From contig JBMNTA010000004.1 of assembly GCA_050945495.1 (NCBI GenBank), forward strand, positions 10,876 through 74,875: DNA of 64,000 bases. Reading direction: 5' to 3'. Positions 33,083 through 52,472 of the stretch are shown one piece after another (position 1 is the first letter of the stretch; every line of letters starts with the position of its first letter). The stretch is from Saccharofermentanales bacterium (GTDB lineage Bacteria > Bacillota > Clostridia > Saccharofermentanales > DTU023). The notes under the pieces are model-generated. The model saw only the letters and a program-made list of their open reading frames with translations. It did no database searches and was not told the origin of the DNA. The translations under genes and the position numbers were made by a program.

Positions 33083-33106
33083 GCACAGACATAGAAAGGA
33101 ACTTTT

Positions 33107-35737: not shown

Positions 35738-36897
35738 TCGCGATGGATCCGATCAAACGTGACATTGCGACGATTTTCCAAGAGCTCGCCGACGGCCTGG
35801 AGACGGGTCGCATCGGGAAGCGTCCGACCGTCGCCGTCATCGGCCTCGGTTCGGAATTGGGCGAGGACAACGTCATGGAGGGCTGCCTCGACGCCGCCCG
35901 ACACGACATCGACGTGATCTTCCTCGGTAAGATCGAGGCGGACGGCGTCCGCACCGTGCAGGCCGAGGATCCCGACGACGCCTTCGCCAAGATGGAGGCG
36001 CTCATCGCCGCCGGCGAAGCCGACGCCGCCGTCGCCATGCATTACCCTTTCCCGATCGGCGTCTCCACCGTGGGACGCGTCAACACATCGGCGACGGGGA
36101 AACAGATTTATCTGGCGACCACGACGGGCACCACGGCGACCGATCGCGTCGAAGCGATGGTGATGAACACCTTGGCCGGCATCGCCACGGCGAAAGCCGA
36201 CGGCATCGCCGACCCGACGGTCGGCCTGTTGAACCTCGACGGCACGCGCCAAGTCGAAATCATCCTGAAACAGCTGCAAGAGAACGGCTATCCCCTGACG
36301 TTTGCGACCTCGAGTCGTGCCGACGGCGGCGCCGTCATGCGCGGCAACGACATCATCCGTGCGTCACAGGACGTCCTCGTCCTCGACTCGCTCACGGGCA
36401 ACGCCGTCATTAAAATGCTGTCGTCGTTCACCTCCGGCGGCTCGTACGAGACCGTCGGCGCGGGGTACGGCCCGGGCGTCGGCGAAAAAATGGCCGGCAT
36501 CGTGATGATTGTGTCACGCGCCTCCGGCGCGCCCGTCATCGCGCAGTCGATCCGATTTGCCGCATCGCTTGCCGAAGGCAACCTCAAAGACATCTACATG
36601 AAGGAACTGGCGGCCGCCAAAAAAGCCGGGCTCGATCAACTGTTGAACGAGCGCCGCGAGCAGGCCTCCGCCAAGTCGGACGAAGCGACGGTCACGGCAC
36701 CGCCCTCGGAAGTCGTGCCCGAACAAATCCAAGGCATCGACGTCATGGACCTCGACGACGCCGTGCAGACGCTCTGGAAGGCCGAGATTTACGCCGAGAG
36801 CGGCATGGGCTGCACCGGCCCGATCATCCGCGTCTCGACGGCCAACCTGGACAAAGCCGCCGCGATCCTTCGCGACGCCGGCTTCATCAGCGAGTAA
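35734..36897 (+). CDS. grdD: glycine reductase component C alpha subunit (GrdD), PlsX-like fold
   Basis: GTGA start/stop overlap with grdC. About 387 aa, PlsX/phosphate acyltransferase-like sequence. Confidence 0.85.
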   Translation: MIAMDPIKRDIATIFQELADGLETGRIGKRPTVAVIGLGSELGEDNVMEGCLDAARHDIDVIFLGKIEADGVRTVQAEDPDDAFAKMEALIAAGEADAAVAMHYPFPIGVSTVGRVNTSATGKQIYLATTTGTTATDRVEAMVMNTLAGIATAKADGIADPTVGLLNLDGTRQVEIILKQLQENGYPLTFATSSRADGGAVMRGNDIIRASQDVLVLDSLTGNAVIKMLSSFTSGGSYETVGAGYGPGVGEKMAGIVMIVSRASGAPVIAQSIRFAASLAEGNLKDIYMKELAAAKKAGLDQLLNERREQASAKSDEATVTAPPSEVVPEQIQGIDVMDLDDAVQTLWKAEIYAESGMGCTGPIIRVSTANLDKAAAILRDAGFISE

Positions 36898-36916: not shown

Positions 36917-37846
36917 ATGTTAGCGTTTCAACCCCTAAAACTGGAAGACATCCCGCGGATTCGGCCGTATTTGACGCCGAATCCGCAACGGATGTGCGAT
37001 TGGACCGTCGGCGGCACCTTTATTTGGCGCGACCTCTACGAGTACGAAGTTGCGTTCGTCGACGATTGTCTCATTTTTCGCATGAAGATTTTCGGCACGC
37101 ATCACGCGTACACCGTCCCGCGGGGCGAGCACATCGGCAACGCGTTGGATGCGCTCGAAGCCCACTGTGAAGCCGTCGGCGATCCCTTGGTCTTCAGCAT
37201 CGTGGGGGACCACGATCTGCCGCTCTTGTCGGAGCGTTACCCCGGCTTTCACGCCGTCTCGGAACGCGATTACTACGATTATTTGTACGACGCGCGCGAT
37301 CTCTTGGCCCTCGAAGGACGTCAACACAAGTCGACGCGCAACAACATCAACCGCTTCCGCCGACAGACACCGGATTGGCGATTTGAAAAGATCGATGCGA
37401 CGAACATCGACGATGTCCGCCGCTACGTCGACGAAGAGCGCCAATACATCCCCGAGGACCATGCGACGCTCATCGAAGAGTCGAATAAAATCCATGAGGT
37501 CTTGGATCACATGGACGCGTACCGCATGTTCGGGGGCGTGCTCTACGTCGGAGACACGGTCATCGGTTACTCCTTGGGCGAAGTCGTGGGCGACACGCTC
37601 TACGTGCACACGGAAAAAGCCGACGTCGCGTACCGCGGCGCCTATCAAATGCTCGTCGCCTGTTTCATGGACATGTACGGCGACGACCCCGACATCGCGT
37701 TTGTCAACCGGGAAGACGACAACGGCGACCCGGGCCTGCGTCGATCCAAGACGACGTATGGCCCCGTGGCCCTGATTTCGAAGTACACCGTCTACACCTC
37801 GGACGACCACCTCGAGTGGCGCGAGCGCACGTATTTGGAAGGTTAA
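36917..37846 (+). CDS. DUF2156 (MprF C-terminal / lysyl-PG synthase-like) domain protein
   Basis: Resemblance recalled to stand-alone DUF2156 proteins (RMCDWTVGGTFIWRDLY, NINRFRRQ, GDPGLRRSK). Starts 19 nt after grdD. Confidence 0.7.
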   Translation: MLAFQPLKLEDIPRIRPYLTPNPQRMCDWTVGGTFIWRDLYEYEVAFVDDCLIFRMKIFGTHHAYTVPRGEHIGNALDALEAHCEAVGDPLVFSIVGDHDLPLLSERYPGFHAVSERDYYDYLYDARDLLALEGRQHKSTRNNINRFRRQTPDWRFEKIDATNIDDVRRYVDEERQYIPEDHATLIEESNKIHEVLDHMDAYRMFGGVLYVGDTVIGYSLGEVVGDTLYVHTEKADVAYRGAYQMLVACFMDMYGDDPDIAFVNREDDNGDPGLRRSKTTYGPVALISKYTVYTSDDHLEWRERTYLEG

Positions 37847-37894: not shown

Positions 37895-38043
37895 GCATGC
37901 ACCGCGACGCGCCGTTGGGGGCGGTTTTTTTATTTTTGACGCGGTTTCATGTAAAATACGTATAAACGACGGCCCCGTTTTTGCTGAATTGTCCAACGGT
38001 ACACAGGGTGATATCTGTTCTCATATCGAAGGAGACGTATGCC

Positions 38044-38694
38044 ATGGATATGAAAAAAGAAGCCTTGCGAAAGCAAATGATGGCTAAGTTCATCATCTCC
38101 GCCGATGAAATTTTGCAGTCCGAAGGATTTGACAAAATCACCATCCGCAACGTCGCCGATCTGGCCGGCTACAATTCCGCGACCCTTTACAACTACTTCG
38201 AGGACCTGGATCACCTGCTCTTCTACATGTCGATGCGCTACTTGGCCGAGTACAGTCGCAGCGTCGAGCGCGTCGCCGCGCATTACAAAACGGCCCTCGA
38301 GCGTTACTTGGGCATCTGGGCGTTCTTCATCGATCAGTCGTTCGAAAAACCGAAGATGTTCTACGAAATCTTCTTCAGTCCGAAGTACCGCAATCTCCTC
38401 GACGTCACCATGCGCGATTATTACCAGATCTTCCCCGAAGAATGGAACGTGCAAATGGAACTCGTGAACCAAATGTATCGCGGCAAGAACATCTACGTTC
38501 GCAATCGCGTGCTTTTGGAAGACTTGGTCGAGGAGGGCGTCATTGAGGAACGCAACGTCGGGCGCATCAACACAGGTTCCATCTACGCCTATCAAGCCGT
38601 ATTGAACGATCTGCGCCAAGGCATTTGCTTTGAGCATTTTAAAGAAGAATTGATGGATATTCTCGAATACTTTATTACCGGCACTTGGAACTGA
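38044..38694 (+). CDS. TetR/AcrR-family transcriptional regulator
   Basis: HTH FDKITIRNVADLAGYNSATLYNYFEDLDHLLFY. AAGGAGA RBS 8 nt before ATG 38044. Confidence 0.9.
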   Translation: MDMKKEALRKQMMAKFIISADEILQSEGFDKITIRNVADLAGYNSATLYNYFEDLDHLLFYMSMRYLAEYSRSVERVAAHYKTALERYLGIWAFFIDQSFEKPKMFYEIFFSPKYRNLLDVTMRDYYQIFPEEWNVQMELVNQMYRGKNIYVRNRVLLEDLVEEGVIEERNVGRINTGSIYAYQAVLNDLRQGICFEHFKEELMDILEYFITGTWN

Positions 38695-38918
38695 CCGGAT
38701 CCGGGCGCGTATCCTTACGCGCTGTTCCTTTCTCTATTAGCAAAAGGCCATATTTGTCATTGATTATTCAAATATGTCTTTCGCTTCTTTTCCAAAGATA
38801 CCGTGATGAGTTATTGCCCCGACCAATGCATGGCGGAGCAATATAGCTTCATGATTATTTAACCGTGATTACAAACGTTCCAGCATTTATTCATATCATC
38901 AATACCCATACATTTTTC

Positions 38919-38969
38919 TTGACATCCTCCTTGCGATGAAGTAGCATACATTCAAGTAATCATGATTAC
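38919..38969 (+). promoter_or_regulatory. promoter TTGACA-17-TAGCAT (38919-38947) followed by the perfect 14-bp palindrome GTAATCATGATTAC (38956-38969)
   Basis: Read directly. The palindrome lies between the -10 and the GAAGGAGG RBS of the gene at 38985. Half-site copies TCATGATTA (38849-38857) and GTGATTAC (38865-38872) lie upstream. Confidence 0.6.
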
Positions 38970-38984
38970 CGAAGGAGGTGCGCG

Positions 38985-40310
38985 ATGCATTTGACCATAG
39001 GCAGGTTCCCGATTCGTGATGTGGTCTTCGGTTCGTCCACCTCCCTGAACGACGGCATCATCACCCTCGATAAAGCGAGCGCCATCCGCTTTCTGCGCGA
39101 AAGCGACGAACATTTAACCGATCTCGACATCGAAATCGCACGTCCGGGCGAGCACAAACGCATCGTCCCGATCAAGGAAGCGGTGGAGCCACGCTTGCGC
39201 ATGGACGGACGCACGCTGTTTCCCGGTGTGACGGGCGAGCTCGTGCCCTGCGGCGAAGGCAGCCTGCATGCCACCGAGGGCGTCGCGATCCTCGGCGTCG
39301 GCAAACATTGGGGCAGTTTCGGCGACGGCCTCGTCGACATGTTCGGCAAGGGCGCCCCTTACTCGCCGTTTTCTCAAACGATCAACATCTGTCTCGTCGC
39401 GGACACGGACGAGCCCGATCAACGGGAAGTGCAGAAAACCAATCACGCCATCCGTTGGGCGGCGCACCGATTCGCCGAATACCTCGGCGCCGTGTTGATC
39501 GACCATGTGCCAGACCGCGTGGAAACGTATGCATTGGCGCCACTGCTGAAACGAACGCACGAGGAAATGGCGTTACCGGGTGTCGTGTTGGTCATGCAGG
39601 CGCAGTCCCAGATGGAGGTTGCGGGGTACAACGACCTTTTCTACGGATGGGACATGAACCATTATTTGCCAAGTTTTGTGCACCCCAACACCATTTTGGA
39701 CGGGGGGCTCATTTCCGGAAGTTTCATGCCGTCAAGTTCCAAATGGTCGACGTATGACATGCAAAACTTCCCGCTCATCAAAGAACTGTACGCCCAACAC
39801 GGCAAAACCCTCAATTTCTTGGGCGTCATCCTGAGCAATTTGAACGTCTCGCTGAACCAAAAAGAGCGATCGGCCCTCCGCGTCGCTGAGATCGCGCAGG
39901 CGATCGGCGCCGACGGCGCGATCGTGACGGAAGAGGGCTACGGCAATCCGGACGCCGACTACATTCGCTGCATTGAAGTCCTGGAAGACGCCGGCATCCC
40001 GACGGTGGGCGTCAGCAACGAGTGCACGGGGCGCGACGGACGCAGTCAGCCGCTGGTCGTCATGAGCGAAAAAGCGAACGCGCTGGTCTCCACCGGCGAC
40101 GTCTCGCAGTTGATTGAACTGGAACCCGCCGAGACCGTCATCGGGGAGCTCGAAGCGCTCGCCCGCGACGGACTTTCCGGCGGTTGGGCCCACGACGAAA
40201 TCTTGGGTCCCTCGGTGCGCGACGACGGATCGATCATCATGGAGAATAATGCCATGTTCTGCGGAGATGCCATTTCCGGCGCCAGCGTCAAGACCGTCAA
40301 GGAGTTCTAG
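38985..40310 (+). CDS. GrdE/GrdI-family reductase component B subunit paralog lacking the cleavage-site Cys
   Basis: Collinear by eye with GrdE at 29496 (PRLRMDG, FPGV, GNPDADYI, TVGVSNE). LISGS-F247-MPSSSKWSTYD replaces IVSGN-C243-VSACDKNTTYH. Confidence 0.85.
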   Translation: MHLTIGRFPIRDVVFGSSTSLNDGIITLDKASAIRFLRESDEHLTDLDIEIARPGEHKRIVPIKEAVEPRLRMDGRTLFPGVTGELVPCGEGSLHATEGVAILGVGKHWGSFGDGLVDMFGKGAPYSPFSQTINICLVADTDEPDQREVQKTNHAIRWAAHRFAEYLGAVLIDHVPDRVETYALAPLLKRTHEEMALPGVVLVMQAQSQMEVAGYNDLFYGWDMNHYLPSFVHPNTILDGGLISGSFMPSSSKWSTYDMQNFPLIKELYAQHGKTLNFLGVILSNLNVSLNQKERSALRVAEIAQAIGADGAIVTEEGYGNPDADYIRCIEVLEDAGIPTVGVSNECTGRDGRSQPLVVMSEKANALVSTGDVSQLIELEPAETVIGELEALARDGLSGGWAHDEILGPSVRDDGSIIMENNAMFCGDAISGASVKTVKEF

Positions 40311-40312
40311 GC

Positions 40313-41620
40313 ATGAAAAAAGCGGTGTTGTACATCAATCAATTTTTTGCCGGCATCGGGGGCGAAGACCAAGCGAACCTCGAACCGGAGATGCGGCCGG
40401 GCGTGGTCGGATCCGGCATGGCGCTTCAGGCGGCCTTGGACGGCATCGAGATCACGCACACCCTCATTTGCGGCGACAACTACATCGGCACGCACGACAA
40501 AGAAGCGATCGAACGGATTTTGTCGCTGTTGGAGACGATTGAATTTGACCTGCTGTTTGCCGGTCCCGCCTTCCAAGCCGGGCGTTACGGCTTTGCGTGC
40601 GGACTGGTCTGCAAACGCGTTCGGGAAACGTTTGGCGTGCCGGTGTTTTCGTCGATGAATGAAGAGAACCCCGGCACCGAGATGTTCCACGAAGATTTTC
40701 CGATCTTCATCGGCGGGCGAAGTGCCGCCGCCATGCGCAAAGACTGTCGGCGGATGGGGCGTTACGCCAGCCGCCTCATGCGCGGCGAACCGCTCGAATG
40801 GGCCGAGAAGGAAGGCTATTTCGGCCGCGGGATCCGAAAGCAGATCCCGCTGGATCCGCCGGTGCCCGCCGCGCGGCGCGCCGTGGAGATGTTGACCCGT
40901 AAAATGGCGGGCGAGCCCTACGTCACGGAATTGCCGGTGCCGCCTCGGTCCCATGTACCGATTGCGCCGCCGATCAAAGATTTGACGCAGGCGACCCTGG
41001 CCGTCATCACCACGGGCGGCATCGTTCCGGTCGATAACCCCGACCGCATTCAGTCGGCCTCGGCCACGCGTTGGGGATCCTACGACATTTCATCGATGGA
41101 TCGCTTGGAAGCCGGCCGATTCAAGACCATTCACGCGGGCTTCGACCCCTACGCGGCCAACACCGATCCCAACGTGATCGTGCCGCTCGACGTCTTGCGA
41201 GCCATGGAAAAAGAGCATGTGTTCAAACGGTTGCACTCGCATTTCTTTTCCACGGTCGGCACGGGAACGACGCAGGCGGAAGCCGAGCGCATGGGTCGGG
41301 AAATGCTCGTCGAACTTCGGAGGAACCATGTAGACGGCGTGCTCATGGTATCGACCTGAGGGACCTGTACCCGTTGCGGCGCAACGATCGTCAAAGAAAT
41401 CGAACGGGAAGGCCTTCCCGTCGTTCAGCTGTGCAACATGATCCCCGTGGCCCTCACCGTGGGAAGCAACCGCATCGTTCCGACCATATCCATCCCCTAT
41501 CCTTTGGGCGATCCGAACGATCCGAAGGATGTCCAATACAAGCTACGCCGACATCTGGTGGCCAAAGCCCTCGAGGCGTTGACTGCCGATATCGAAGAAC
41601 AGACGGTTTTCAAGGTCTAG
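40313..41620 (+). CDS. GrdB/GrdH-family selenoprotein B paralog, UGA-Sec at 41357-41359
   Basis: Track ORFs 40313..41359 and 41438..41620 share one frame. Read-through gives VLMVST-U-GTCTRCGATIVKEIEREG. Hairpin CGTTGC-GGC-GCAACG at 41372-41386. Confidence 0.9.
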
Positions 41621-41762
41621 GCGGGGGGTGCGCGCAAGCATGCGGTTCCATACGCCAGACGATGCTCGAGGCGACTCGAGGATCTCCTTGACCATTCCAT
41701 CAACCGACCAAGCACGATGTGCTTCGAAGGGTGCGACATCACCGAACATAAGGAGGAAAAAC

Positions 41763-43298
41763 ATGTTGAAACGAGGTTTTGGGAAAAAGGTTGTGGCAGC
41801 CTTTCTGATTGCGATACTTGTCGTGAGTGTCGTCGGCTGCGGACCGAAAGAACAGACGACGGGCGGCGCGAAAGATTCGCTGACCATCGGCATCGTCGCC
41901 GACGCGACGACGATGGATGCGCAAATGTTCAACGACAACATGACCGAAGGCATTGTCTCGAACATCTACGACCCGATCGTCCGCGTCACACCGGACGGCG
42001 AAATCGTCCCCTGCATCGCAGAAAAATGGGAAATTTCCGAGGACGGTCGAGTGTATACGTTCGACATCAAGCAGGGCGTTAAATTCCACAACGGCGATGA
42101 GCTGACACTGGACGACGTGGTCTTCACGTTGAATCGGTGCAAAGAGTCCTCGTTTGTGGGCACGTACTTCTCGTACATTGAGGACGTCAAAACGCAAGGC
42201 GACCACCAAGTCGTCGTGACGCTGGCGTATCCTTACAGCTCCTTCATGCCGATCCTGGCTTGCTACAGCGGCGTCGTGAGCAAAAAACTCCTCACCGAAG
42301 ATCCCGATTCGATGGCGAGAAATCCGGTCGGCACGGGCCCCTACAAGTTTGTGAAATGGGAACCGGAAAACGTCATCGTCATGGAAGCTTTCGAAGATTA
42401 CCATGCGGGCGCGGCCCCCATCAAAAACGTGACATTCCGCATCATCGGATCGGCCTCCACCGGCACGATTTCGCTGCAAAAAGGCTCGATCGACGCCTAC
42501 GTCAACGTGTCCTCGGTCGATCGTCAAACCGTCAAAGACGACGAGCATTTGGAATTGCTCGAACGCTCGTCGGGCGCCTTCCGCTTCTTGGGCATCAACT
42601 GCGAAGTCAAACCGTTTGACGACGTCCGCGTGCGGCAAGCCATCGCGCACGCCATCGACAAAGAAGCCGTCGTCATCGGGGCGGAAGACGGGAACGGCGT
42701 CGTCGCCGTCAGCCACATTCCGGAAGGCGTCGTCGGTTACGATCCGAACTTCAAGGACCTCGAACACGACGTCGAGAAAGCCAAAGCGCTCTTGGCGGAC
42801 GCCGGCTATCCCGAGGGGTTTGAGTGCACGCTCACCACGACGGAGAACCGGTCGATGCACGCGCAGATCATTCAGGCCGACCTGAAGAAAATCGGCATCG
42901 ACGTCAAGATCGAACTGCTCGAATCCGGCACCTTCTACGAAGACCTGGAGAACGGCGATTTTGAACTGCAGATTCTGGGCTGGTCCTACATCGCGCAGGA
43001 TCCGGACGTCGCCATTTACGACTTGTACAAGTCGGACAACGCGCTCGCGGGCAACTACGGCCGTTACGCCAACCCGAAGATGGACGAACTGCTCGAAAAA
43101 GCGCGCGTCTCCACCGATACGGCCGAACGTCAAAAATTGTACGAAGAGGTGGAAGCCCTCTGCCGTGACGATGCCTTCAACATCGTCATCTACTGGACGG
43201 TGGCCAACATCGGCTTCAACAAAGATTTGAGAGGCGTTCAGGTATCTCCGAAGTCGACGTACTTCGTCTATCCTTTCCATTGGGCGGACGGCGAGTAA
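41763..43298 (+). CDS. ABC transporter substrate-binding lipoprotein, family 5 (peptide/nickel/opine type)
   Basis: Lipobox LVVSVVGC after a basic N-terminus. AAGGAGG RBS before ATG 41763. SBP_bac_5-like body of about 510 aa. Confidence 0.9.
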   Translation: MLKRGFGKKVVAAFLIAILVVSVVGCGPKEQTTGGAKDSLTIGIVADATTMDAQMFNDNMTEGIVSNIYDPIVRVTPDGEIVPCIAEKWEISEDGRVYTFDIKQGVKFHNGDELTLDDVVFTLNRCKESSFVGTYFSYIEDVKTQGDHQVVVTLAYPYSSFMPILACYSGVVSKKLLTEDPDSMARNPVGTGPYKFVKWEPENVIVMEAFEDYHAGAAPIKNVTFRIIGSASTGTISLQKGSIDAYVNVSSVDRQTVKDDEHLELLERSSGAFRFLGINCEVKPFDDVRVRQAIAHAIDKEAVVIGAEDGNGVVAVSHIPEGVVGYDPNFKDLEHDVEKAKALLADAGYPEGFECTLTTTENRSMHAQIIQADLKKIGIDVKIELLESGTFYEDLENGDFELQILGWSYIAQDPDVAIYDLYKSDNALAGNYGRYANPKMDELLEKARVSTDTAERQKLYEEVEALCRDDAFNIVIYWTVANIGFNKDLRGVQVSPKSTYFVYPFHWADGE

Positions 43299-43380
43299 TC
43301 GTTGATGCCGGCTAAGTTTTTTCGGGGCGCATCCCACATGCGCCCCGAACCATCGTTGAACGCACGGATTGAGGACATCT

Positions 43381-44346
43381 ATGCTTAAATACGTTTTCAA
43401 AAGAATTTTGCTGATGATTCCGGTGCTCATAGGCATTTCTTTTATCATCTTCAGCATCATTTCATTGACCCCCGGGAATCCGGCAAAGGCCATCTTGGGG
43501 GAACGCGCAAGCCCGGAAGCCATCGACGCGTTGAACGAAGAGCTCGGCTACAACGACCCGTTCCTGGTCAAATACGGCAACTATTTAAAAAATGCCTTTA
43601 AGGGCGATTTCGGCACGTCCTACAAATCGGGATTGCCGGTGACGGAGGAAATCGGGCGTCGCTTTCCGGTGACGCTGTTGCTCGCCGTCATGATCATGGT
43701 CATCACCGTCATTGTCGCCATCCCCTTGGGGGTGTTTGTCGCGATGCGGAAGAACACGGTGGCCGACGGGACGAGTTTGGTCGTCGCGCTTTTATTGAAC
43801 TCCATGCCGTCCTTCTGGTTGGGCCTGTTGTTGATGCTGCTGTTCTCGCTGTATCTCGACTGGCTGCCGGAGACGGGCTCATCGTCCTTCGCCCACTTCA
43901 TCCTTCCGGCGTTGACCTTGTCGGCGAGCAACATCGCGCAAATCATGCGGATGACGCGATCGTCCATGCTGGAAGTCGTGGGGCAGGACTACATTCGCAC
44001 CGCCAAGGCCAAGGGCGCGAAAAAGAATCAGATCATTGTCAAGCACGCGTTAAAGAATGCCTTGATCCCGGTCATCACCGCCGTCGGCGTCAACTTCGGT
44101 TACACGCTCGGCGGATCGGTGCTCGCCGAATCCGTGTTCGGCATGACGGGCCTCGGAAGCTTGCTGCTCAACGCGATACGAAGCAAAGACATTCCTTTGG
44201 TCATGGGTTCGGTCTTATTCATGTCGTTCTTGTTCAGCATTGTCAACTTGATCGTGGACATCTCGTACGGATTCATTGATCCGCGCATCCGAGGGCAATA
44301 TGCGACCGGCAAGCGGAGACGAGCGAAACGAGGTCAAAATGTCTAA
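43381..44346 (+). CDS. ABC transporter permease (OppB/DppB type)
   Basis: MLKYVFKRILLMIPVLIGISFIIF start typical of DppB. EAA loop region YIRTAKAKGAKKNQII. Confidence 0.9.
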   Translation: MLKYVFKRILLMIPVLIGISFIIFSIISLTPGNPAKAILGERASPEAIDALNEELGYNDPFLVKYGNYLKNAFKGDFGTSYKSGLPVTEEIGRRFPVTLLLAVMIMVITVIVAIPLGVFVAMRKNTVADGTSLVVALLLNSMPSFWLGLLLMLLFSLYLDWLPETGSSSFAHFILPALTLSASNIAQIMRMTRSSMLEVVGQDYIRTAKAKGAKKNQIIVKHALKNALIPVITAVGVNFGYTLGGSVLAESVFGMTGLGSLLLNAIRSKDIPLVMGSVLFMSFLFSIVNLIVDISYGFIDPRIRGQYATGKRRRAKRGQNV

Positions 44347-45232
44347 AAAGAAATCCAAAAAACCCATCCCGAAGACGTTGACCCGACGCACCCCGTGGCA
44401 GGACGCCATGTTCCGCTTCCGTCAGGACAAGTTGGCCATGGCGGGCCTGTGGATTTTGGTGGCGATTCTGCTGATCACCATCCTCGGAGCCATCTTCTTG
44501 GATTACGACACCCAGGTCATCGAGCAAAACGTGCGCAACAAGTATGCGCCGCCCAGTGCGGAACACTGGTTCGGCACCGACGGATTCGGCCGCGACATCT
44601 TTGCCCGTGTCGTGTGGGGATCCCGCTACTCGCTGCTCATCGGCTTTGCCGCCACGTTCAGCTCCTTGTTCATCGGAGGTTTTCTCGGCGCCATCGCCGG
44701 CTATTACGGCGGCAAAATCGATAACGTGATCATGCGTATCATGGACATGTTCATCGCCATTCCGACCATTCTCTTGGCGATCGCGATCGTCTCGGCGCTG
44801 GGGCCGAGCTTGTTGAACCTCATCATGGCGATCTGCATCTCCAACGTGCCGGGCTACGCGCGACTCATCCGCTCGTCGGTGCTGACCATCAAGGACAACG
44901 ATTTCGTGGAAGCGGCACGGGCGACCGGGGCGAGCAACCGCAAGATCATCATGACGCACATTCTGCCCAACACGCTGGCACCGATCATCGTCCAAGCGAC
45001 CCTCGGCGTCGGCTACGCCATTTCCAGCGCGTCCGGCCTGAGTTTCCTGGGATTGGGCATTATGCCGCCCGACCCGGAATGGGGCAACATGTTGGCGGAA
45101 GGACAGGACGTGATCCGATATACGCCCTGGCCCGTCATCTTCCCCGGTCTGGCCATCATGATCACCGTTTTGGCGCTCAACCTTGTCGGCGACGGACTTC
45201 GCGACTCGATTGACCCCAAACTGAAAAGGTAG
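44339..45232 (+). CDS. ABC transporter permease (OppC/DppC type)
   Basis: Start overlaps the preceding stop. HWFGTDGFGRDIFARV motif typical of DppC. Confidence 0.9.
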   Translation: MSKKKSKKPIPKTLTRRTPWQDAMFRFRQDKLAMAGLWILVAILLITILGAIFLDYDTQVIEQNVRNKYAPPSAEHWFGTDGFGRDIFARVVWGSRYSLLIGFAATFSSLFIGGFLGAIAGYYGGKIDNVIMRIMDMFIAIPTILLAIAIVSALGPSLLNLIMAICISNVPGYARLIRSSVLTIKDNDFVEAARATGASNRKIIMTHILPNTLAPIIVQATLGVGYAISSASGLSFLGLGIMPPDPEWGNMLAEGQDVIRYTPWPVIFPGLAIMITVLALNLVGDGLRDSIDPKLKR

Positions 45233-45241
45233 GCGTTCGTT

Positions 45242-46222
45242 ATGGAAAATACCCTTCTATCGATTGAAGACCTGGTGGTGCGTTACAATACGTCGACCGG
45301 CGTCGTGCATGCGGTCAACGGGATTACGTTGGACTTGAAAAAAGGTGAAACGCTCGGGCTCGTCGGCGAAACGGGCGCGGGCAAGACGACCATCGGATTC
45401 AGCATCCTGCAGTTGCTGCCCGAGGATATCGGGGAAATCGTCCGGGGCAAAATCTTCTTTAACGGCGAAGACCTGACCGAATTTTCGGAAAGCGAGATGG
45501 AAGACATCCGCGGAGAGAAGATCTCGATGATCTTCCAAGATCCGATGACGAGCCTCAACCCGATTATGCCCGTGGAAGAGCAAATCGCCGAAGCGATCGA
45601 ACTCCATAACGACCAACTGAGCAAACATGAGGTCGACGATCGCGTCGATCAAATGCTTGAATTGGTCGGCATCCCCAAAGAACGCAAGTACGAGTATCCG
45701 CACCAGTTCAGCGGCGGCATGAAGCAACGCGTCATCATCGCCATGGCGTTGGCGTGCGATCCGCAACTCTTGATCGCGGACGAGCCCACCACGGCGTTGG
45801 ACGTCACGGTGCAGGCGCAAGTCCTGGAATTGATGAATGAGCTGAAAAGTCAATTGAACACCTCCCTGTTGTTGATTACGCACGACCTTGGGGTCATCGC
45901 GCAGATGTGTGACCGCGTCGCCGTGATTTATGCCGGCGAGATCGTGGAAATCGGCTCGCTGGAGGACGTCTACGACGACCCGGACTTCAAGCACCCCTAC
46001 ACGCGCGGGCTGTTCGGCGCCATCCCGGACTTGAAATCGGACGAAAAGCGGCTGCGCCCCGTCGAGGGATTGATGCCCGATCCGATGGATTTGCCGTCGG
46101 GCTGTTCGTTCCATCCGCGCTGTCGCCACTGCATGGAGATCTGCAAGACGAAGAAACCGCCCGTCATCGTGCGTGACGGCCATGCCGTGATGTGCCATCT
46201 TTTTGAGGAAGACCATGAGTGA
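45242..46222 (+). CDS. ABC transporter ATP-binding protein (OppD type, C-terminal Cys motif)
   Basis: Walker A GETGAGKT, signature FSGGMKQRV, Walker B LLIADEPTTALD, C-terminal CSFHPRCRHC. Confidence 0.9.
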   Translation: MENTLLSIEDLVVRYNTSTGVVHAVNGITLDLKKGETLGLVGETGAGKTTIGFSILQLLPEDIGEIVRGKIFFNGEDLTEFSESEMEDIRGEKISMIFQDPMTSLNPIMPVEEQIAEAIELHNDQLSKHEVDDRVDQMLELVGIPKERKYEYPHQFSGGMKQRVIIAMALACDPQLLIADEPTTALDVTVQAQVLELMNELKSQLNTSLLLITHDLGVIAQMCDRVAVIYAGEIVEIGSLEDVYDDPDFKHPYTRGLFGAIPDLKSDEKRLRPVEGLMPDPMDLPSGCSFHPRCRHCMEICKTKKPPVIVRDGHAVMCHLFEEDHE

Positions 46223-47213
46223 GTATGTCATTGAAACACGCGATCTGAAGAAATATTTTAAGTCGCCCCACGGCGTCGTCCATGCGGTCGACGGCATCGA
46301 CATGCGGGTGAAGCGGGGCGAGACGCTGGGCATCGTCGGGGAATCGGGCTGTGGCAAGAGCACGCTGGCACGCCTGCTTTTGCGCCTGATCGACGCGACG
46401 TCGGGCGAGATCTATTTCAACGGGGAAAACATTCTGGACTACCGCCCCAAGAAAATGAAAGAAACGCGGAAACAAATTCAGATCATTTTCCAAGACCCGT
46501 ATGCGTCGCTCAATCCGCGATTGTCGGTCAGCGAGATCATTTCCGAGCCGCTCAGAAACTTTAAAGATTACGAGAACGCCAAGGATCTCCAACAAAAAGT
46601 GATGAGCGTCATGGACAAAGTCGGCTTGGACCAGCGCTTCTTTTACAGCTACCCGCATGAATTGGACGGCGGACGACGCCAGCGGATCGGCATCGCGCGA
46701 GCACTCATCCTGCAGCCGGAGGTGATCGTCTGCGACGAGCCGGTGTCGGCGCTCGACGTCAGCGTGCAGGCACAGATCCTCAACCTGCTGATGGACTTGC
46801 AGGAGCAGATGGGACTCACCTACGTGTTTATTTCCCATGACCTGTCGGTCGTCAAACATATTTCCGACAACATCATGGTGATGTACCTCGGCAAATGCGT
46901 GGAACTTGCGCCCTCCGAAAAAATCTTCAAAAACCCCGCCCATCCTTACACGCAGGCCCTGTTGGATTCGATCCTTTTGCCCTCCAGTTCGCAAAAAGGC
47001 AAAAAATTGCCTTTAATTAAGGGAGAACTTACCGGCGCGCTCGATCCCGATCCGGGGTGTCGATTCGCGCCGCGGTGCAAATGGGCGACGGACGCTTGCA
47101 AAGCCGACGATATCCCGTTGGAGCAAATCCGCGACGCCCATCACGTGGCATGTCTGCGATGGAAAGAGGTGCTCGAACACAATGCATCCCCACATTCGGT
47201 CCAAGATTCTTGA
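46215..47213 (+). CDS. ABC transporter ATP-binding protein (OppF type)
   Basis: Walker A GESGCGKST, signature LDGGRRQRI, Walker B VIVCDEPVSALD, C-terminal CRFAPRC. Confidence 0.9.
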   Translation: MSEYVIETRDLKKYFKSPHGVVHAVDGIDMRVKRGETLGIVGESGCGKSTLARLLLRLIDATSGEIYFNGENILDYRPKKMKETRKQIQIIFQDPYASLNPRLSVSEIISEPLRNFKDYENAKDLQQKVMSVMDKVGLDQRFFYSYPHELDGGRRQRIGIARALILQPEVIVCDEPVSALDVSVQAQILNLLMDLQEQMGLTYVFISHDLSVVKHISDNIMVMYLGKCVELAPSEKIFKNPAHPYTQALLDSILLPSSSQKGKKLPLIKGELTGALDPDPGCRFAPRCKWATDACKADDIPLEQIRDAHHVACLRWKEVLEHNASPHSVQDS

Positions 47214-48315
47214 CGTTGACACCGGATCGTTTGATCTGAAAGACATCGCGGTGGACGGCGAACGTTTCGTCGAACCGTCGGCCGCGCCCCCCGCATCGGA
47301 CGTGTGGCACCTGGAGGATCGCTACATCACGCCCGGGTTGATCGAGGCGCATTCGCACCTCGGCCTCTGCGAGGCCGGCCGGGGCGAAGCGGGTGAAGAC
47401 ATTTGCGAGACATCCGAGGCCTCCGTGCCGCAATTGCGGGCGCTCGACGCTTTTAATCCGTTCGATCCCGCGATCGAACGCGCGCGTTCGGGCGGCGTCA
47501 CCGTGGCATGCACGGGGCCGGGAAGCCTCAATGTCTTGGGCGGCCTCTTCATCACCGTGGAGCTTGCGGGCACGGTCGTCGATGAAATGGTGATCGATCC
47601 CGCGGCCGCGCTCAAGTGTGCGCTCGGCGAAAATCCGAAAGCGTTCGGGACCAAGGGCAAGTTTCCCAATTCACGGATGGGCATCGCGGCGATCATTCGC
47701 CAAAGCTTTTACGATGCCATGGCGTACGGCCGCAAGAAAGCCGCCGATCCCGACCTGCCGATCGATCTGCGTTACGAACACCTGTTGATGGTGCTGCGCC
47801 GTGAAATTCCTTTGAAAACGCACGTCCACCGGGCCGATGACATCTGCACGGCCATTCGCTTGGCCCGTGAGTTCAATCTTCGCCTCACGCTCGACCATTG
47901 CACCGAAGGCCACAAGATCGCGCCCTATCTTGCGCAATTCGATTATCCGATCATCCTCGGCCCGAGTTTCGGTGTGCCGGGCAAGCGCGAGACGTTGGAA
48001 AAATCCTTTGCGACGGCGGCGACGCTGTACCGACACGGCATCGCCTTTTCGGTGACGACGGATCACGACGTGTTCCCGCAAGAAGAACTGATCACCTGCG
48101 CGGCGCGCGTCAAAAAGGCCGGCGTCCCCGAGGCGGAAGCCTTCAAGGCCGTGACGCTCCACCCCGCCCAAGCCTTGTCGATCGACGATCGCAAGGGCAG
48201 CATCGAGCCCGGCAAAGATGCCGATTTCGTCGTATGGAGCGGGCATCCGTTCGACCTGGAGTCGCGCGTCGAGCACGTCTTTATCCGCGGTCGCAAGGTC
48301 TATGCGGCCGACTGA
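47182..48315 (+). CDS. amidohydrolase-superfamily protein (imidazolonepropionase-like, COG1228 type)
   Basis: ITPGLIEAHSHLG metal motif, later HVHRADD and a C-terminal GSIEPGKDADFVVW strand. Overlaps the ATPase gene by 32 nt. Confidence 0.8.
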   Translation: MHPHIRSKILDVDTGSFDLKDIAVDGERFVEPSAAPPASDVWHLEDRYITPGLIEAHSHLGLCEAGRGEAGEDICETSEASVPQLRALDAFNPFDPAIERARSGGVTVACTGPGSLNVLGGLFITVELAGTVVDEMVIDPAAALKCALGENPKAFGTKGKFPNSRMGIAAIIRQSFYDAMAYGRKKAADPDLPIDLRYEHLLMVLRREIPLKTHVHRADDICTAIRLAREFNLRLTLDHCTEGHKIAPYLAQFDYPIILGPSFGVPGKRETLEKSFATAATLYRHGIAFSVTTDHDVFPQEELITCAARVKKAGVPEAEAFKAVTLHPAQALSIDDRKGSIEPGKDADFVVWSGHPFDLESRVEHVFIRGRKVYAAD

Positions 48316-48353
48316 CGTTTCCTTTACAATGACATTCCACGGAGGAGAACGCG

Positions 48354-49568
48354 ATGCTCTCGGATGAACTGATTTTACAAGCGGAACGCCGCGCCGATGC
48401 CTTGGCCGATGAATGCGAAGCCATCAGCCATTTCATTTTTACGCATCCGGAGCTTGGATTGGAGGAGCATCAATCCTCGCGTTACCTCGTCGAATATTTG
48501 CAACAAAGAGGCTTTTCGGCGATCCATCCATACGCCGGATTGGCCACCGCCTTCCGCGCCGAATACGGCACAACGGGGCCTCGCATTGCGTTCTTGGCGG
48601 AATACGATGCCCTCCCCGGATACGGCGAAGACGGCACCGACAACGGGCACGCCTGCGGACACAACTGGATCGCCGCGTCCGCGGTGGGCGCGGCCGTCGT
48701 CTTATCGGCCTTTGCCGACGCCCTGGGATTTCGCGTGGCCGTCATCGGCACACCGGCCGAAGAAAGCTACGGCGCCAAGGTCGACATGGTCGAACAGGGC
48801 GTGTTCGACGATGTGGATCTCGTCCTGCAGACCCATCTCGCCGCGGAACACTGCGTCTGTTACAAAGCGCTCGCCATGGATACCTTCGTTTTTCATTACA
48901 CGGGCAAGGCGGCGCATGCGTCGGCGGCGCCGTGGAACGGCATCAACGCCTTGGACGCCGTGCATCTTTTGTATGCCGGCATCAGCGCCTTCCGCCAACA
49001 ACTAAAGCCCGACATGCGCATTCACGGCATCATCACCGACGGCGGCACCGTGGCGAATACGCTGCCCGATCAAGCGAGCGCCGAATACATGACGCGTGCG
49101 TCGACCCGAGCGGACCTCGACCGATTGAATGCCCGCGTCACAGACATTGCCCGGGGCGCCGCCCTGATGACCGGCGCGACGCTCGACATCACGCGCTCGG
49201 AACTCCCCTTGGATCACTTGATTCATCTCCCGTCGCTGCAAGCGTTGACGGTGAAACATTGGGCGCGTTACGGCATCGTTCCGCAAGTCGATGAGGTCCG
49301 GGCGGAAGCGATCGCCGGCTCCACGGACATCGGGAACGTCAGTCACGTCTGTCCCACGATGTACATGGAGGTGGGCTTGGATGCCCCCGAGCCGTTGCAG
49401 GTGCATGAGGCGAGCGCGCTGGCACTCGTCGACGGCCCCTTCGCTTACGCACGGCTGCATCACATCGTCAAGGCCATGGCCACGATGGTCTTGGAGTATG
49501 TGACGGACGACCGACTTCGCCGAACCATCGCCGAAGAATTTGCCGCCCGCCGACCTTCCCGCCGATAA
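48354..49568 (+). CDS. M20D-family amidohydrolase (N-acyl-amino-acid / AbgA / hippurate hydrolase-like)
   Basis: FTHPELGLEEHQSS, EYDALPG, HACGHN motifs. GGAGGAG RBS. Confidence 0.85.
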   Translation: MLSDELILQAERRADALADECEAISHFIFTHPELGLEEHQSSRYLVEYLQQRGFSAIHPYAGLATAFRAEYGTTGPRIAFLAEYDALPGYGEDGTDNGHACGHNWIAASAVGAAVVLSAFADALGFRVAVIGTPAEESYGAKVDMVEQGVFDDVDLVLQTHLAAEHCVCYKALAMDTFVFHYTGKAAHASAAPWNGINALDAVHLLYAGISAFRQQLKPDMRIHGIITDGGTVANTLPDQASAEYMTRASTRADLDRLNARVTDIARGAALMTGATLDITRSELPLDHLIHLPSLQALTVKHWARYGIVPQVDEVRAEAIAGSTDIGNVSHVCPTMYMEVGLDAPEPLQVHEASALALVDGPFAYARLHHIVKAMATMVLEYVTDDRLRRTIAEEFAARRPSRR

Positions 49569-49596
49569 AAAACTGCCCCGAATCGCTTCGGGGCAG
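49567..49596 (-). terminator. intrinsic terminator of the tldD-pmbA operon (T-run only on the minus strand)
   Basis: Minus strand CTGCCCCGAA-gcga-TTCGGGGCAG-TTTTTT. Confidence 0.75.
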
Positions 49597-49627
49597 CCGT
49601 GCATCGTGATGCGTCGCGATGCGTGAT

Positions 49628-51025
49628 CTAGAAGCTCTTATTGGAAATCTCCACGTTGATGTCGTCAAAGCACCCCAACACCGGCACGATCATCGAATAA
49701 GGATCGCGACCGCCGTAGTGGGACGAACTGCCGTAAGGCATCGTCTCTTTGGCGAGCCAGACGAGCTTTTTGCCGAACAAATCGGAGAGTTTTTCCGTGA
49801 AACGCACGTTGTAGGGCAGCGCGATCGAGCCGTCCTTTTTGAGCAGCAGGGCCCCGAAACGCGACGACCCCGTGATGAGGCCCTCGCTCGGGTTGACGAT
49901 GCCGCCGTAGTGCAAGTACGGAATGTACAGGAGATCTTCGTCGCGGGGTTCTTCGGCCAACGCTTGAATCGATGTCCACTCGGCGTCCCCGCCCATCAGC
50001 TTAAACGAGAGGTTCGGCACATCGGACGCGGTCGGGGATGCGCCAAACTCATCGGCCGACGCCTGATCCCAGATAAACCCGGTAAAGACGCCCCGATCGT
50101 ACACGGCGCGTGCGTCACGGCGACGCCCATATAAGTCGACGGGCATCGGGAAGGTGTCGAGAAGCGACGGATCTTCGACGAGCGTGAACCGATCGGACAT
50201 GATCTTTTGCCCGACGCTGTCGTCCTTCAACATGCTGAATCCGCGTTTCATCGAGCCGCCCGCGGTGCCGAGCCATTCCAAGTACATCAGGTACTCCGCG
50301 ATGGCGGCGGGGCCCATGATGACGCGGTACGGGCGCTCTTCGGCGCGCTCTTCGGGACACGTGTTATAGCAAGTCGAAAGCCACCGGAGTCGGTCGTGCA
50401 GCGCTTGGGCGTCGAGATCGGCTTTGCGCCAGACGAATTGCTCGGCGTTGATCTCCCACTTGCGCTTTTCCGACGCCAAAACGAGCGTGATGCCGATGTC
50501 GGTCGAGCGACGGCACACGACGTTGTCCGACGTCGTCCAGATCACGGCCTGTTCGACGACGCCCGCGGAGAAGTTGCCGGACAAGAGAATGTCCTCGGTC
50601 TCCAGTCCTGCGACGGCATCGTTTACAAACGCGATGATCTCCTCGTTCGTCAATTCGACGACCTCCGGGTCGTAGCTGCCTTCGTAAACGACCGTTTCGG
50701 GGATCGTCGCGATGGTCGGTTCGTACGTTTTTTCCGACGCGAACGGCACCATGTCGATCGCCTGATCGATCGCCCGTTTCATCGCATCGATGTCGGCGGG
50801 ATCGACGATGAGGCCGGTCGTCGCCTCGCGACGGCCGTCGTAGACGGACACGCGCATGCGAACGAGGTCCTCGTGACTATTGAGGGAAATCGCCGAATTC
50901 GCGTAGCGCACCATGTGGCTGTCTTCCGCGTTCCAATGGATGGCGGCGACGGCGCCGCGGTCGAGCGCGTATCGACGCAGTTCGCGCAGTGTTTCAATGA
51001 TGAGATGTGCGGCCATGTTATTCAC
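49628..51025 (-). CDS. pmbA: PmbA/TldE-family metallopeptidase partner subunit
   Basis: TldD/PmbA fold by sequence resemblance to the neighbour, without an HExxxH motif. Start overlaps the tldD stop. Confidence 0.8.
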   Translation of the reverse strand: MNNMAAHLIIETLRELRRYALDRGAVAAIHWNAEDSHMVRYANSAISLNSHEDLVRMRVSVYDGRREATTGLIVDPADIDAMKRAIDQAIDMVPFASEKTYEPTIATIPETVVYEGSYDPEVVELTNEEIIAFVNDAVAGLETEDILLSGNFSAGVVEQAVIWTTSDNVVCRRSTDIGITLVLASEKRKWEINAEQFVWRKADLDAQALHDRLRWLSTCYNTCPEERAEERPYRVIMGPAAIAEYLMYLEWLGTAGGSMKRGFSMLKDDSVGQKIMSDRFTLVEDPSLLDTFPMPVDLYGRRRDARAVYDRGVFTGFIWDQASADEFGASPTASDVPNLSFKLMGGDAEWTSIQALAEEPRDEDLLYIPYLHYGGIVNPSEGLITGSSRFGALLLKKDGSIALPYNVRFTEKLSDLFGKKLVWLAKETMPYGSSSHYGGRDPYSMIVPVLGCFDDINVEISNKSF

Positions 51026-52472
51026 CTACCTTTACGTTGTCAAAGCGGCAGACGGGCACGCCGTGGCCGAGCTGCATCACCTGGCCGGGCACGCCTTTGC
51101 CGCAGTTGTCGACGTATTGCACCTTCCACGTCGATGGATCGCCGACGGCCGACAGCGAACGGTAGAAGTCGAGCGTCATGCCGCTGTACGCGGGGTTTTT
51201 CACGACGTGTCGGACGGCCCCGTCCTCGACGTACCAGCCGATGTCGTTGGCAAAGTGGAACTGTTCGCGGTTGGAGCCGATCGACCAGCTCTTTTCGCCC
51301 GACAAAATGACGCCGCGCTCCGTGTTGCTCACGATGTCGTCGAGCGTGCCGTCTTCGCCCGGATCGATGTTGATGTTCGTCATCCGCTCGATCGGGACGC
51401 GATAGAAACTGCACGCACGGCAGGCGCCGCCGGATCCGTCAAAGATGTCGCGGCCGGCGCGTTCGTTCGCTTCGACCACCATCTGGCGCGACGTGATCGC
51501 TCCGACCAGCACGCCGTTTTGGATGAGCATGCGGTTCTGGGCGCGGACGCCGTCGTCGTCGTAACCGAAGCTGCCCGGCGAATTGACGAGCGTCGCGTCG
51601 GCGCGAACGTTGAGTTTCTCGGAGCCGTATTGCAATCGACCGAAGTCGTCCAGACGGACAAACGATCCGCCGGCAAAGGACAGTTCGTAGCCGAGGATGC
51701 GGTCGAGCTCCAACGCGTGCCCGATCGTCTCATGGACTTGCAGGAACATGATGTCCGGCATCAAGATGACCGACATCCGCCCCTCGGGCGCTTTCGGCGC
51801 GTCGAGCAATTGCTTCATCTCGCGGACGATGCGATCGGCTTGTTCGCGCCAGTGCTCGCGATCCATGATTTCCCAGCCGCGCGACGGACCGAGCCGGGGC
51901 GGCATGTACTTGCGATTTTGGCGGATGCCTTCGTCGTCAAACGCCGCCACTTCGAAGAACGGGAAATTCTCGACGATGTGTTTCGTGATCTCGGCGCCTT
52001 CCGAGTCGTAATATTCGATCGTCTTGCGCACCGTCTGCCAACGCACCATGCGGTGTTGCACGCCGGGTTGATCGATGAAACGATCCAGATCCTGCAACAT
52101 CGCCATCTGTTCGTCCAACGGCACCTCAAAGGGATCGATCTCGCACGGGCTCGTGAACGTGCCCGAGACGACCTCTTTATCCGCCAAACGGACCGGACGG
52201 GTCACTTTCTTCGCGGCCGCGGCCGCGTTGTCAAAGGCGCGATCAAACGTCGCTTCCACGCACGCCAAATCGGACGACGCCGCAAAGCCCCAGGCCCCGT
52301 CGACGAGGACGCGCACGCCGAAGCCGCGCTCCGTCGAACGGCTGAAGTCCAAGAGGTTGCCGTTCCAGAGCACGCGGCTGTCCTCTTCTTCGCGGGGGTA
52401 ATAACGGACGTCCGCGTACGTCGCCCCCTTGTCCGTCAATCGACGGACCTGTTTTTTCCAGTCAATTCGCAT
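51018..52472 (-). CDS. tldD: TldD-family metallopeptidase
   Basis: HETIGHALELD (HExxxH) motif and GxC C-terminal region. AAGGAG RBS. Confidence 0.85.
   Translation of the reverse strand: MRIDWKKQVRRLTDKGATYADVRYYPREEEDSRVLWNGNLLDFSRSTERGFGVRVLVDGAWGFAASSDLACVEATFDRAFDNAAAAAKKVTRPVRLADKEVVSGTFTSPCEIDPFEVPLDEQMAMLQDLDRFIDQPGVQHRMVRWQTVRKTIEYYDSEGAEITKHIVENFPFFEVAAFDDEGIRQNRKYMPPRLGPSRGWEIMDREHWREQADRIVREMKQLLDAPKAPEGRMSVILMPDIMFLQVHETIGHALELDRILGYELSFAGGSFVRLDDFGRLQYGSEKLNVRADATLVNSPGSFGYDDDGVRAQNRMLIQNGVLVGAITSRQMVVEANERAGRDIFDGSGGACRACSFYRVPIERMTNINIDPGEDGTLDDIVSNTERGVILSGEKSWSIGSNREQFHFANDIGWYVEDGAVRHVVKNPAYSGMTLDFYRSLSAVGDPSTWKVQYVDNCGKGVPGQVMQLGHGVPVCRFDNVKVGE

Follow-up and report, generated by a model that had tools for sequence, protein, structure and literature searches.

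A putative TetR-controlled betaine reductase locus linked to a peptide-type importer and two amidohydrolases in a Saccharofermentanales bacterium

Organization of the locus

We analyzed a 64,000-nucleotide stretch of DNA from a Saccharofermentanales bacterium (assembly GCA_050945495.1, contig JBMNTA010000004.1, positions 10,876 to 74,875), hereafter called the window, with a focus on the second of its glycine-reductase-type selenoprotein loci. This locus, at 38044-49568, joins a reductase of the GrdI/GrdH type to an Opp-type importer and two amidohydrolases. An open reading frame (ORF) map with translations, combined with Pfam and NCBIfam scans, gave a TetR gene, an AT-rich control region and then nine co-directional genes on the plus strand. 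All the genes named in a preliminary description of this DNA were found at or near the positions it gave, but its count of eleven genes after the TetR gene has to be corrected to nine, since eleven is reached only by including TetR itself and both halves of an ORF split by a selenocysteine (Sec) codon. The genes are tightly packed or overlapping, and the sole sizeable gap is one of 142 bp between grdH and the gene for the substrate-binding protein (SBP).

The first gene (38044-38694, plus strand, as are all genes of the locus) encodes a TetR-family repressor of the grdIH cassette, identified by its Pfam TetR_N domain and by homologues of 76-81% identity at the closest grdIH loci. It is followed by grdI (38985-40310), encoding an alpha subunit of betaine reductase protein B that is not self-cleaving (Pfam Gly_reductase, 539 bits), and by grdH (40313-41620), encoding a selenoprotein subunit of the GRDB family with a UxxCxxC motif, for which GrdH is the best NCBIfam model. 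The Sec residue noted earlier at 41357 was recovered: the TGA at 41357-41359 is in frame, within the motif STUGTCTRCGAT, and the element for Sec insertion (SECIS; Rfam RF01990 SECIS_4, 51.1 bits against a gathering score of 38) begins directly after it, at 41360-41397 on the plus strand.

The remaining genes form the importer-amidase module. All five components of an importer of the ATP-binding cassette (ABC) type are present: a family-5 (cluster C) substrate-binding lipoprotein (41763-43298; Pfam SBP_bac_5, 317 bits), a permease of the OppB/DppB type (43381-44346; BPD_transp_1 and BPD_transp_1_N), a permease of the OppC/DppC type (44339-45232; OppC_N and BPD_transp_1) whose gene overlaps the preceding one, and two ATPases with ABC_tran and oligo_HPY domains, of the OppD type (45242-46222) and the OppF type (46215-47213), the latter gene overlapping both of its neighbors. 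Behind them lie a COG1228-like amidohydrolase-superfamily enzyme, similar to the protein of structure 3OOQ and probably binuclear-metal (47182-48315; Pfam Amidohydro_1 and Amidohydro_3), and an M20D-family amidohydrolase of the aminoacylase or dipeptidase type (48354-49568; TIGR01891, 216.7 bits against a cut-off of 153.75). A terminator scan placed a G+C-rich 12-bp hairpin at 49571-49598, at the operon end, which is common to a convergent TldD/PmbA metallopeptidase pair on the minus strand (49628-52472). As for a recent horizontal-transfer island, GC3 values of 0.71-0.82 in the operon genes against 0.70-0.84 in the flanks gave no clear signal of one.

The 290-bp intergenic region between the TetR gene and grdI (38695-38984) has a G+C content of 41%, compared with 59% for the window, which agrees with the AT-rich promoter and operator region described before. 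A promoter scan detected a sigma-70-like promoter at 38919-38947 on the plus strand (TTGACA, a 17-nt spacer and TAGCAT; 10 of 12 matches). Between the -10 box and the ribosome-binding site lies a palindromic operator, GTAATCATGATTAC (38956-38969, plus strand), which is a perfect copy of the motif TAATCATGATTA, and a second, imperfect copy lies at 38860-38871, also upstream of grdI. In the 64 kb only two sites match TAATCATGATTA with at most two mismatches, and both are upstream of grdI.

The same elements accompany grdIH elsewhere. By local tblastn a TetR gene was found near grdI in 75 of 91 loci, mostly directly upstream, and TAATCATGATTA lies no more than 400 bp upstream of grdI at 63 of 84 loci; its background rate is roughly one site in 5 kb. 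The palindrome tracks the grdIH-associated TetR in Clostridia, Tissierellia and Fusobacteria, and tandem copies are often 17 or 36 bp apart. TAATCATGATTA is thus the putative conserved TetR operator of the grdIH family, and since the window shares it, its regulator should be of the same type as in the rest of the family. The 142-bp stretch that separates grdH from the SBP gene yielded neither a terminator-like hairpin with a T-tract nor a promoter nor a second operator, and it folds no better than shuffled sequence. With no terminator and no second operator there, we counted the reductase and the module as coupled.

Shared components in the upstream glycine reductase operon

The locus itself contains no grdA, grdC/D or trx genes, and all of them are present directly upstream. 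There, a canonical glycine reductase operon runs in the order grdE, grdB, trxB, trxA, grdA, grdC and grdD (29496-36897, plus strand; NCBIfam matches and Sec read-throughs). Its grdB has Sec at 31835, with the same SECIS_4 element directly after the TGA (31838-31875), and its grdA (33553-34023) has Sec at 33682 within a CFVU motif, both on the plus strand. Therefore, as the preliminary description had proposed, the predicted GrdI/GrdH enzyme must rely on the upstream GrdA, GrdCD and thioredoxin system. Between grdD and the TetR gene lies a gene with an LPG_synthase_C domain (36917-37846 from its first ATG; 36992-37846 as called in locus L009 of our comparison set), after which a terminator-like hairpin at 37911-37925 parts the two reductase loci.

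Identity of the reductase

The preliminary description had left room for a reductase acting on a new substrate. The selenoprotein scored 717 bits with the NCBIfam model for GrdH, 533 with that for GrdF and 450 with that for GrdB, the respective cut-offs being 775 (NF040795), 800 and 602. Among nine other GrdH proteins compared, the BCCT-linked ones, whose genes adjoin a carrier of the BCCT family, reached 769-865 bits (one of them, L022 at 769, being also under the cut-off), while the two from sister loci, the closest relatives of the window, scored 728 and 760. The alpha subunit is far from the alternatives, at 299 bits with GrdG (cut-off 780) and 139 bits with FarE (NF053623, cut-off 675), and its alignment with GrdI proteins covers the full length, at 62-84% identity.

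A further distinction comes from the former cleavage site. The alpha subunit and all aligned GrdI homologues carry SGSF where the window's own GrdE has SGNC, and we take the Asn-Cys of SGNC to be the self-cleavage site that gives the pyruvoyl group in GrdE-type proproteins, as in GrdE and PrdA processing. The lack of Cys at this position indicates a non-pyruvoyl, betaine-type alpha subunit, which argues against glycine, sarcosine and other amines that require a Schiff base. A creatinine or hydantoin route, in which hydantoinase and carbamoylase would lead to sarcosine, was likewise rejected, on the grounds that the alpha subunit has no pyruvoyl site and that the amidohydrolase is not of the hydantoinase type.

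Neighbor-joining trees were built from 86 GrdI and 80 GrdH sequences. The window pair is nested among BCCT-linked pairs in them, and a long branch sets off the GrdE and GrdB outgroups. Together with three loci from metagenomes, whose GrdI proteins are 75-84% identical to its own, the pair makes up a small clade. We then defined near-invariant columns as those at least 97% conserved among BCCT-linked proteins (157 in GrdI, 129 in GrdH). The window keeps 148 of the 157 and 125 of the 129, and most of the changes are common to its clade; BCCT-linked outliers deviate as much (14 positions in L061, 8 in L066). We found no solved GrdI or GrdH structure in the Protein Data Bank (PDB) for mapping the active site. 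Taken together, these sequence comparisons strongly support the assignment of the pair as protein B of glycine-betaine reductase. The idea of a new B-type enzyme does not hold against the GrdI/GrdH type, the missing pyruvoyl-forming Cys, the nesting within the BCCT-linked family and the retained near-invariant positions. A shift in specificity is possible but unsupported beyond a few lineage-specific substitutions.

The usual neighborhood of grdIH and the missing carrier

To judge the module, the ordinary surroundings of grdIH are needed. A scan of one genome per species yielded 80 GrdI loci, whose neighbors were called by local tblastn. Of the species-level loci, 68 had flanks of sufficient length, and 63 of these have a BCCT carrier next to grdIH, which corresponds to the tetR, grdHI, opuD layout published for betaine reducers (PMC6716910, PMC8547467). 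No BCCT gene was found at our locus or anywhere in the 64-kb window. The five species-level long-flank loci without BCCT consist of one with a carnitine module, two inside larger grd clusters, and L020 and L051, which are described below. Across the loci linked to hydrolases, BCCT is present in none of the four tested, as against 63 of 68 others (Fisher p = 1e-4), an absence that points to the module as a stand-in for the betaine carrier. The Opp importer and the two metallo-amidohydrolases occupy the place of BCCT, probably on one transcript with grdIH.

The closest relatives of the window offer a parallel. At the position of the module, the two nearest loci carry a BKACE enzyme, an L-carnitine dehydrogenase (NF005471, 434 bits against a cut-off of 414) and a sodium:solute symporter, and L001 adds an ADP-forming acyl-CoA synthetase. 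Such carnitine modules were located at L001 (12649-18990), L010/L011 (11799-15491) and L039 (about +2.7 to +4.8 kb from grdI). From its gene content, a plausible reading of the module is an anaerobic route from carnitine via betainyl-CoA and betaine to trimethylamine. Because it occupies the same position, substrate-feeding modules can evidently replace BCCT there.

Features of the importer and the amidohydrolases

The SBP is DppA/HbpA-like. Aligned to DppA (1DPP), it shows Ile in place of Asp408 and a gap of 7 residues where Arg355 lies, and the position equivalent to Asp408 is Ile or Val across the whole SBP clade. In DppA, Asp408 anchors the free amino terminus of the peptide and Arg355 its carboxylate. 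The SBP thus lacks the anchoring residue for a free peptide N-terminus. Import of nickel or of a metallophore was considered and found unsupported: one permease comes near the cut-off of the nickel Opp2B model (340 against 350), but the SBP is far below those of NikA (185 against 393) and CntA (154 bits against 800).

For the amidohydrolase, the best PDB match is 3OOQ, an uncharacterized Thermotoga enzyme (E = 5e-83). Residues H57, H59, K212, H214/H216, H239 and D294 are invariant in 24 homologues and correspond to the HxH, K, H, H and D ligands of a binuclear metal center. The M20D enzyme carries Peptidase_M20 and M20_dimer domains in Pfam, and among solved structures it comes closest to HmrA and the Xaa-Arg dipeptidase PM20D2. 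The M20 enzymes of the window, L176 and L091 all pass the model of the M20D aminoacylase subfamily (3 of 3). Translational coupling links the hydrolase genes to those for the ATPases.

Recurrence of importer-amidase modules beside grdIH

None of the 80 species-level GrdI loci matched the window's own Opp and hydrolase genes, and the same arrangement was seen only in same-species contigs. Recurrence instead surfaced from a search on the SBP side and from manual inspection of loci without BCCT. Five lineages have an SBP that shares 43% identity or more with ours, and in three of them it lies beside grdIH. Locus L174 (31% G+C) has TetR, GrdI, GrdH and, after 30 bp, an SBP of 61% identity and a permease of 73% identity, where the contig ends. 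Locus L176 (52% G+C) contains a divergent TetR gene, a whole Opp set (60-66% identity) with an SBP 44% identical to the window's, an amidohydrolase (48%), an M20D enzyme and a convergent grdH-grdI pair. In L176 the Opp genes and grdIH have separate promoters, and the operator accompanies both: a perfect and a one-mismatch copy for Opp, and a one-mismatch copy upstream of grdI. In L175 the SBP is 58% identical and the Opp genes stand behind a PmbA/TldD gene (2-937) directly upstream of the orthologous SBP gene; two weaker tandem operator sites precede the SBP gene, and the contig ends early. The OppB/DppB-type permease of the window shares 65-74% identity with the permeases of L174, L175 and L176.

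Hydrolases also occur behind grdIH together with other carriers. In Natronincola ferrireducens (L091), the order is TetR, GrdI, GrdH, a DcuC carrier, an amidohydrolase and an M20D enzyme, and the amidohydrolase is the second-best homologue of the window's (52% identical), so that homologues of 48-52% identity adjoin grdIH in L091 and L176. In L020 (9019-11752; metagenome-assembled genome (MAG) Clostridiales SUG1750), GrdI and GrdH are joined by an Xaa-Pro-dipeptidase-like amidohydrolase and a YfcC carrier, with no M20 enzyme. In L051 (13531-19584; Acidaminobacter hydrogenoformans DSM 2784), they are joined by an NhaC/ArcD-like carrier, an ArgE/DapE-type M20 enzyme and two Amidohydro_3 proteins. 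The carrier and hydrolase sets of L020, L051 and L091 are non-orthologous to that of the window, and the carriers at these alternative loci look like basic-amino-acid antiporters. With three transporter families and several hydrolase subfamilies at the same place, the predicted modules of importer and amide hydrolase are convergent.

The reductases show a different history. For each hydrolase-linked reductase, the best match is a BCCT-linked pair of some related taxon, at 79-91% identity: that of N. ferrireducens is 91% identical to that of N. peptidivorans, that of L174 80-81% identical to those of Tissierella and Sedimentibacter, and that of L176 79% identical to that of a Negativibacillus MAG. 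The enzyme has therefore remained constant while its feeder was swapped, and it has not co-evolved with the modules. Judged from the SBP-side enrichment, the convergence, the operators of L176 and the absence of BCCT, we regard the link between reductase and module as functional. The preliminary description would have given up its proposal if the pair clustered tightly with characterized GrdHI or GrdFG while the transporter and hydrolase genes were not conserved neighbors. The pair does cluster with GrdHI, but the transporter and hydrolase genes are recurrent neighbors, though at a minority of loci. Our literature search found no description of an importer-amidase module linked to grdIH.

Proposed route from an imported amide to trimethylamine

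In betaine reductase, the selenocysteine of GrdH attacks the carboxymethyl carbon of betaine and releases trimethylamine, as is established for the family. GrdA would then take over the carboxymethyl group and GrdCD would release it as acetyl phosphate, with TrxB and TrxA supplying the electrons; within the window, these components are encoded by the neighboring glycine reductase operon only. As for the module, we lean, with some reserve, towards a TetR-controlled betaine reductase whose importer and amidases take up an N-blocked, peptide-like amide and free betaine from it. The Opp-type system would import the amide, both hydrolases would cut it inside the cell to give glycine betaine for GrdHI, and the second cleavage product, perhaps a basic amino acid, might act as electron donor. 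Taken together, the features of the SBP, the M20D enzyme and the carriers at other loci would suit a dipeptide-like amide that is N-blocked and carries a basic residue. Within an amide, a quaternary amine can supply the acyl part and nothing else; therefore, a conjugate that yields betaine should be an N-trimethylglycyl compound, and an N-trimethylglycyl amino acid such as trimethylglycyl-lysine would be a fitting type. Trimethylglycyl-lysine was reported in 2025 as a natural betaine amide from human cells, plasma and muscle (bioRxiv 10.1101/2025.04.07.647691). We treat it as a candidate substrate, that is, as a lead and not as evidence. In the broadest form of this proposal, the module would serve to break down amino acids or peptides that bear an N-trimethylglycyl (betainyl) group, forming a self-contained Stickland pair that arose convergently, from different transporter and hydrolase families, in several Clostridia; we put this forward tentatively and consider it doubtful.

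The preliminary interpretation is thus borne out in part: its suggestion that the acceptor may be imported as a conjugate and freed by the hydrolases holds. Modules of importer and amide hydrolase recur beside this reductase type in at least five other lineages, and in L176 the module shares the operator of the reductase. The step from the module to betaine is one that we infer, and several points weigh against the betaine-releasing amide. Reports of trimethylglycyl-lysine are so far confined to human cells and tissue, and the genome may carry a BCCT or Opu betaine transporter at another place. In the 80 metagenome loci L094-L173, no Grd gene stands next to a member of the amidohydrolase family. 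The 3OOQ-like family is large and mostly found among the housekeeping genes tsaE, tsaB, rimI, tsaD and tex, which suggests a widespread housekeeping role but gives no hint of the substrate, and the amidohydrolase may be a general peptidase; the Grd-linked members of the family are not monophyletic. The M20D proteins share 25-50% identity, and the window's merely 25-30% with those of L091 and L176. Loci L177 and L178 (SBP 44% identical) have Opp genes and an amidohydrolase without Grd and without the operator. On the side of the reductase, GrdH falls under its NCBIfam cut-off (717 against 775 bits, with GrdH still the best model by far), and four changes at near-invariant GrdI positions are the window's own (I44L, Q149V, K152T and E236T), of which E236 is conserved even in GrdE.

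Alternative explanations

A serious rival is a general peptidase role in which free betaine enters through a transporter elsewhere and the co-regulated module brings in betaine-free peptides or N-acyl basic amino acids as Stickland donors. The hydrolases belong to families of general peptidases or deacylases that are widespread without Grd, the alternative carriers resemble basic-amino-acid antiporters, and TldD/PmbA peptidase genes flank the module both in the window and in L175. Moreover, betaine reduction in Eubacterium acidaminophilum needs an external reductant. Yet donor coupling leaves unexplained why BCCT is absent exactly where modules occur (0/4 versus 63/68), why the module takes BCCT's position in the operon, why sister loci carry a substrate-feeding carnitine module there, and why the SBP has lost its anchor for a free N-terminus. 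We hold this explanation to be rather unlikely, if well short of negligible. The observation on the missing carrier could also be read in another way, with the Opp system as a non-orthologous carrier of free betaine and the hydrolases acting on an unrelated substrate of the same transporter; the position of the module and an SBP without the peptide-terminus anchors would suit this. However, to our knowledge no cluster-C SBP binds betaine, the genes of hydrolases and ATPases are tied by translational coupling, and hydrolases also accompany DcuC- and NhaC-type carriers at other grdIH loci, so that we give this reading very little credence.

A changed reductase has also to be weighed, in which GrdI/GrdH has shifted to another onium-acetate or related compound made by the hydrolases. 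The sub-threshold GrdH score, the departures of the window clade from the BCCT-linked consensus (9 and 4 positions, against medians of 0-0.5) and the E236T change near the former cleavage site are what one would expect from it, and the family can evolve new substrates, as the fluoroacetate reductase FarE illustrates (PMC10838667). Against this, the closest relatives of the clade are tied to a carnitine-to-betaine module, hydrolase-linked reductases elsewhere remain 79-91% identical to BCCT-linked ones, some BCCT-linked outliers are just as deviant (L061 and L066 in the near-invariant columns, L022 in its score), and the same operator implies the same type of regulator. We therefore consider a new acceptor improbable. 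Slightly less credible still is the absence of any functional link, with an ordinary peptide-uptake and peptidase operon lying by chance downstream of grdIH in an amino-acid fermenter. Chance would be compatible with the rarity of the linkage when it is sought from the reductase (0/80 species-level loci have the Opp and hydrolase genes of the window), with the 142-bp gap before the SBP gene and with the generality of the hydrolase family. It does not sit well with an SBP beside grdIH in 3/5 related lineages, with an operator common to separate promoters in L176, with non-orthologous modules converging on the same position in L020, L051 and L091, or with the missing BCCT wherever modules occur.

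Comparison with known systems

The predicted reductase resembles GrdHI of Peptoclostridium (Eubacterium) acidaminophilum in its selenoprotein GrdH with UxxCxxC and SECIS, its uncleaved GrdI, its upstream TetR gene and its dependence on GrdA, GrdCD and the thioredoxin system, and the expected products are likewise trimethylamine and acetyl phosphate. As in that organism, where the B sets GrdBE for glycine, GrdFG for sarcosine and GrdHI for betaine work on one GrdA/GrdCD/Trx core, two pairs share one core in the window; the second pair is of the known betaine type and adds no fourth specificity, and only the accessory genes differ. The tetR-grdIH order is that of the tetR-grdIH-opuD loci of Candidatus Betaina sedimentti and Oceanirhabdus seepicola (PMC6716910, PMC8547467). 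Unlike the known betaine reductase loci, ours has no BCCT/OpuD or OpuA at the locus, an Opp-type importer and two amidohydrolases in their stead, a GrdH just under the curated cut-off and a high-G+C host.

The FarE/GrdB-like system of Cloacibacillus porcorum (PMC10838667) shows that a member of the GrdE/GrdI family can act on X-CH2-COOH with a good leaving group and without a Schiff base, but with 139 bits against 675 the window alpha subunit is clearly a GrdI and not a FarE. For the module itself, a likeness lies outside the Grd systems. E. coli ddpXABCDF encodes a Dpp-type ABC importer with a D-Ala-D-Ala dipeptidase, and there, too, a family-5 SBP importer is co-transcribed with a hydrolase of the imported amide. 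In the window, by contrast, the unit is joined to, or co-regulated with, a Stickland-type reductase, and its SBP lacks the Asp408 and Arg355 anchors. In short, the betaine reductase cassette is known, and what is unusual is the non-canonical, recurrent and co-regulated module of importer and amidases.

Other observations in the window

Three further regions of the window were noted. A sequence at 1033-1770 (plus strand) resembles GrdB and GrdH in their C-terminal half (34-42% identity); situated at the window edge, it is likely to encode a D-proline reductase subunit of the PrdB type. A formate-dehydrogenase-like molybdopterin oxidoreductase at 9051-11747 (minus strand) is split by an in-frame stop in HCART*HAPTV, and it is probably a further selenoprotein with a classical FdhF-type Sec site. 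A cluster at 16160-25098 looks like one for purine or pyrimidine catabolism, with an amidohydrolase, flavoprotein and molybdopterin subunits of the xanthine-dehydrogenase family, an Fe-S protein similar to dihydroorotate or dihydropyrimidine dehydrogenase, a LacI regulator and a cytosine permease.

Significance

Betaine reduction is one recognized anaerobic route to trimethylamine, which feeds methylotrophic methanogenesis in sediments and trimethylamine N-oxide (TMAO) in animals. Gene surveys count grdH together with a betaine carrier, taking free betaine as the substrate. If the modules do deliver betaine from amide-bound precursors, as the arrangement described here hints, there would be an unrecognized pool of trimethylamine precursors and an unrecognized microbial source, and newly found metabolites such as trimethylglycyl-lysine would have a microbial fate. 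The cassette of TetR, operator and grdIH would then be one that is re-plumbed by exchanging its feeder, be it BCCT for free betaine, carnitine dehydrogenase with BKACE for carnitine, or an importer with amidases for amides. Should the module instead supply Stickland donors, the locus would be a rare case of a donor and an acceptor pathway under one regulator.

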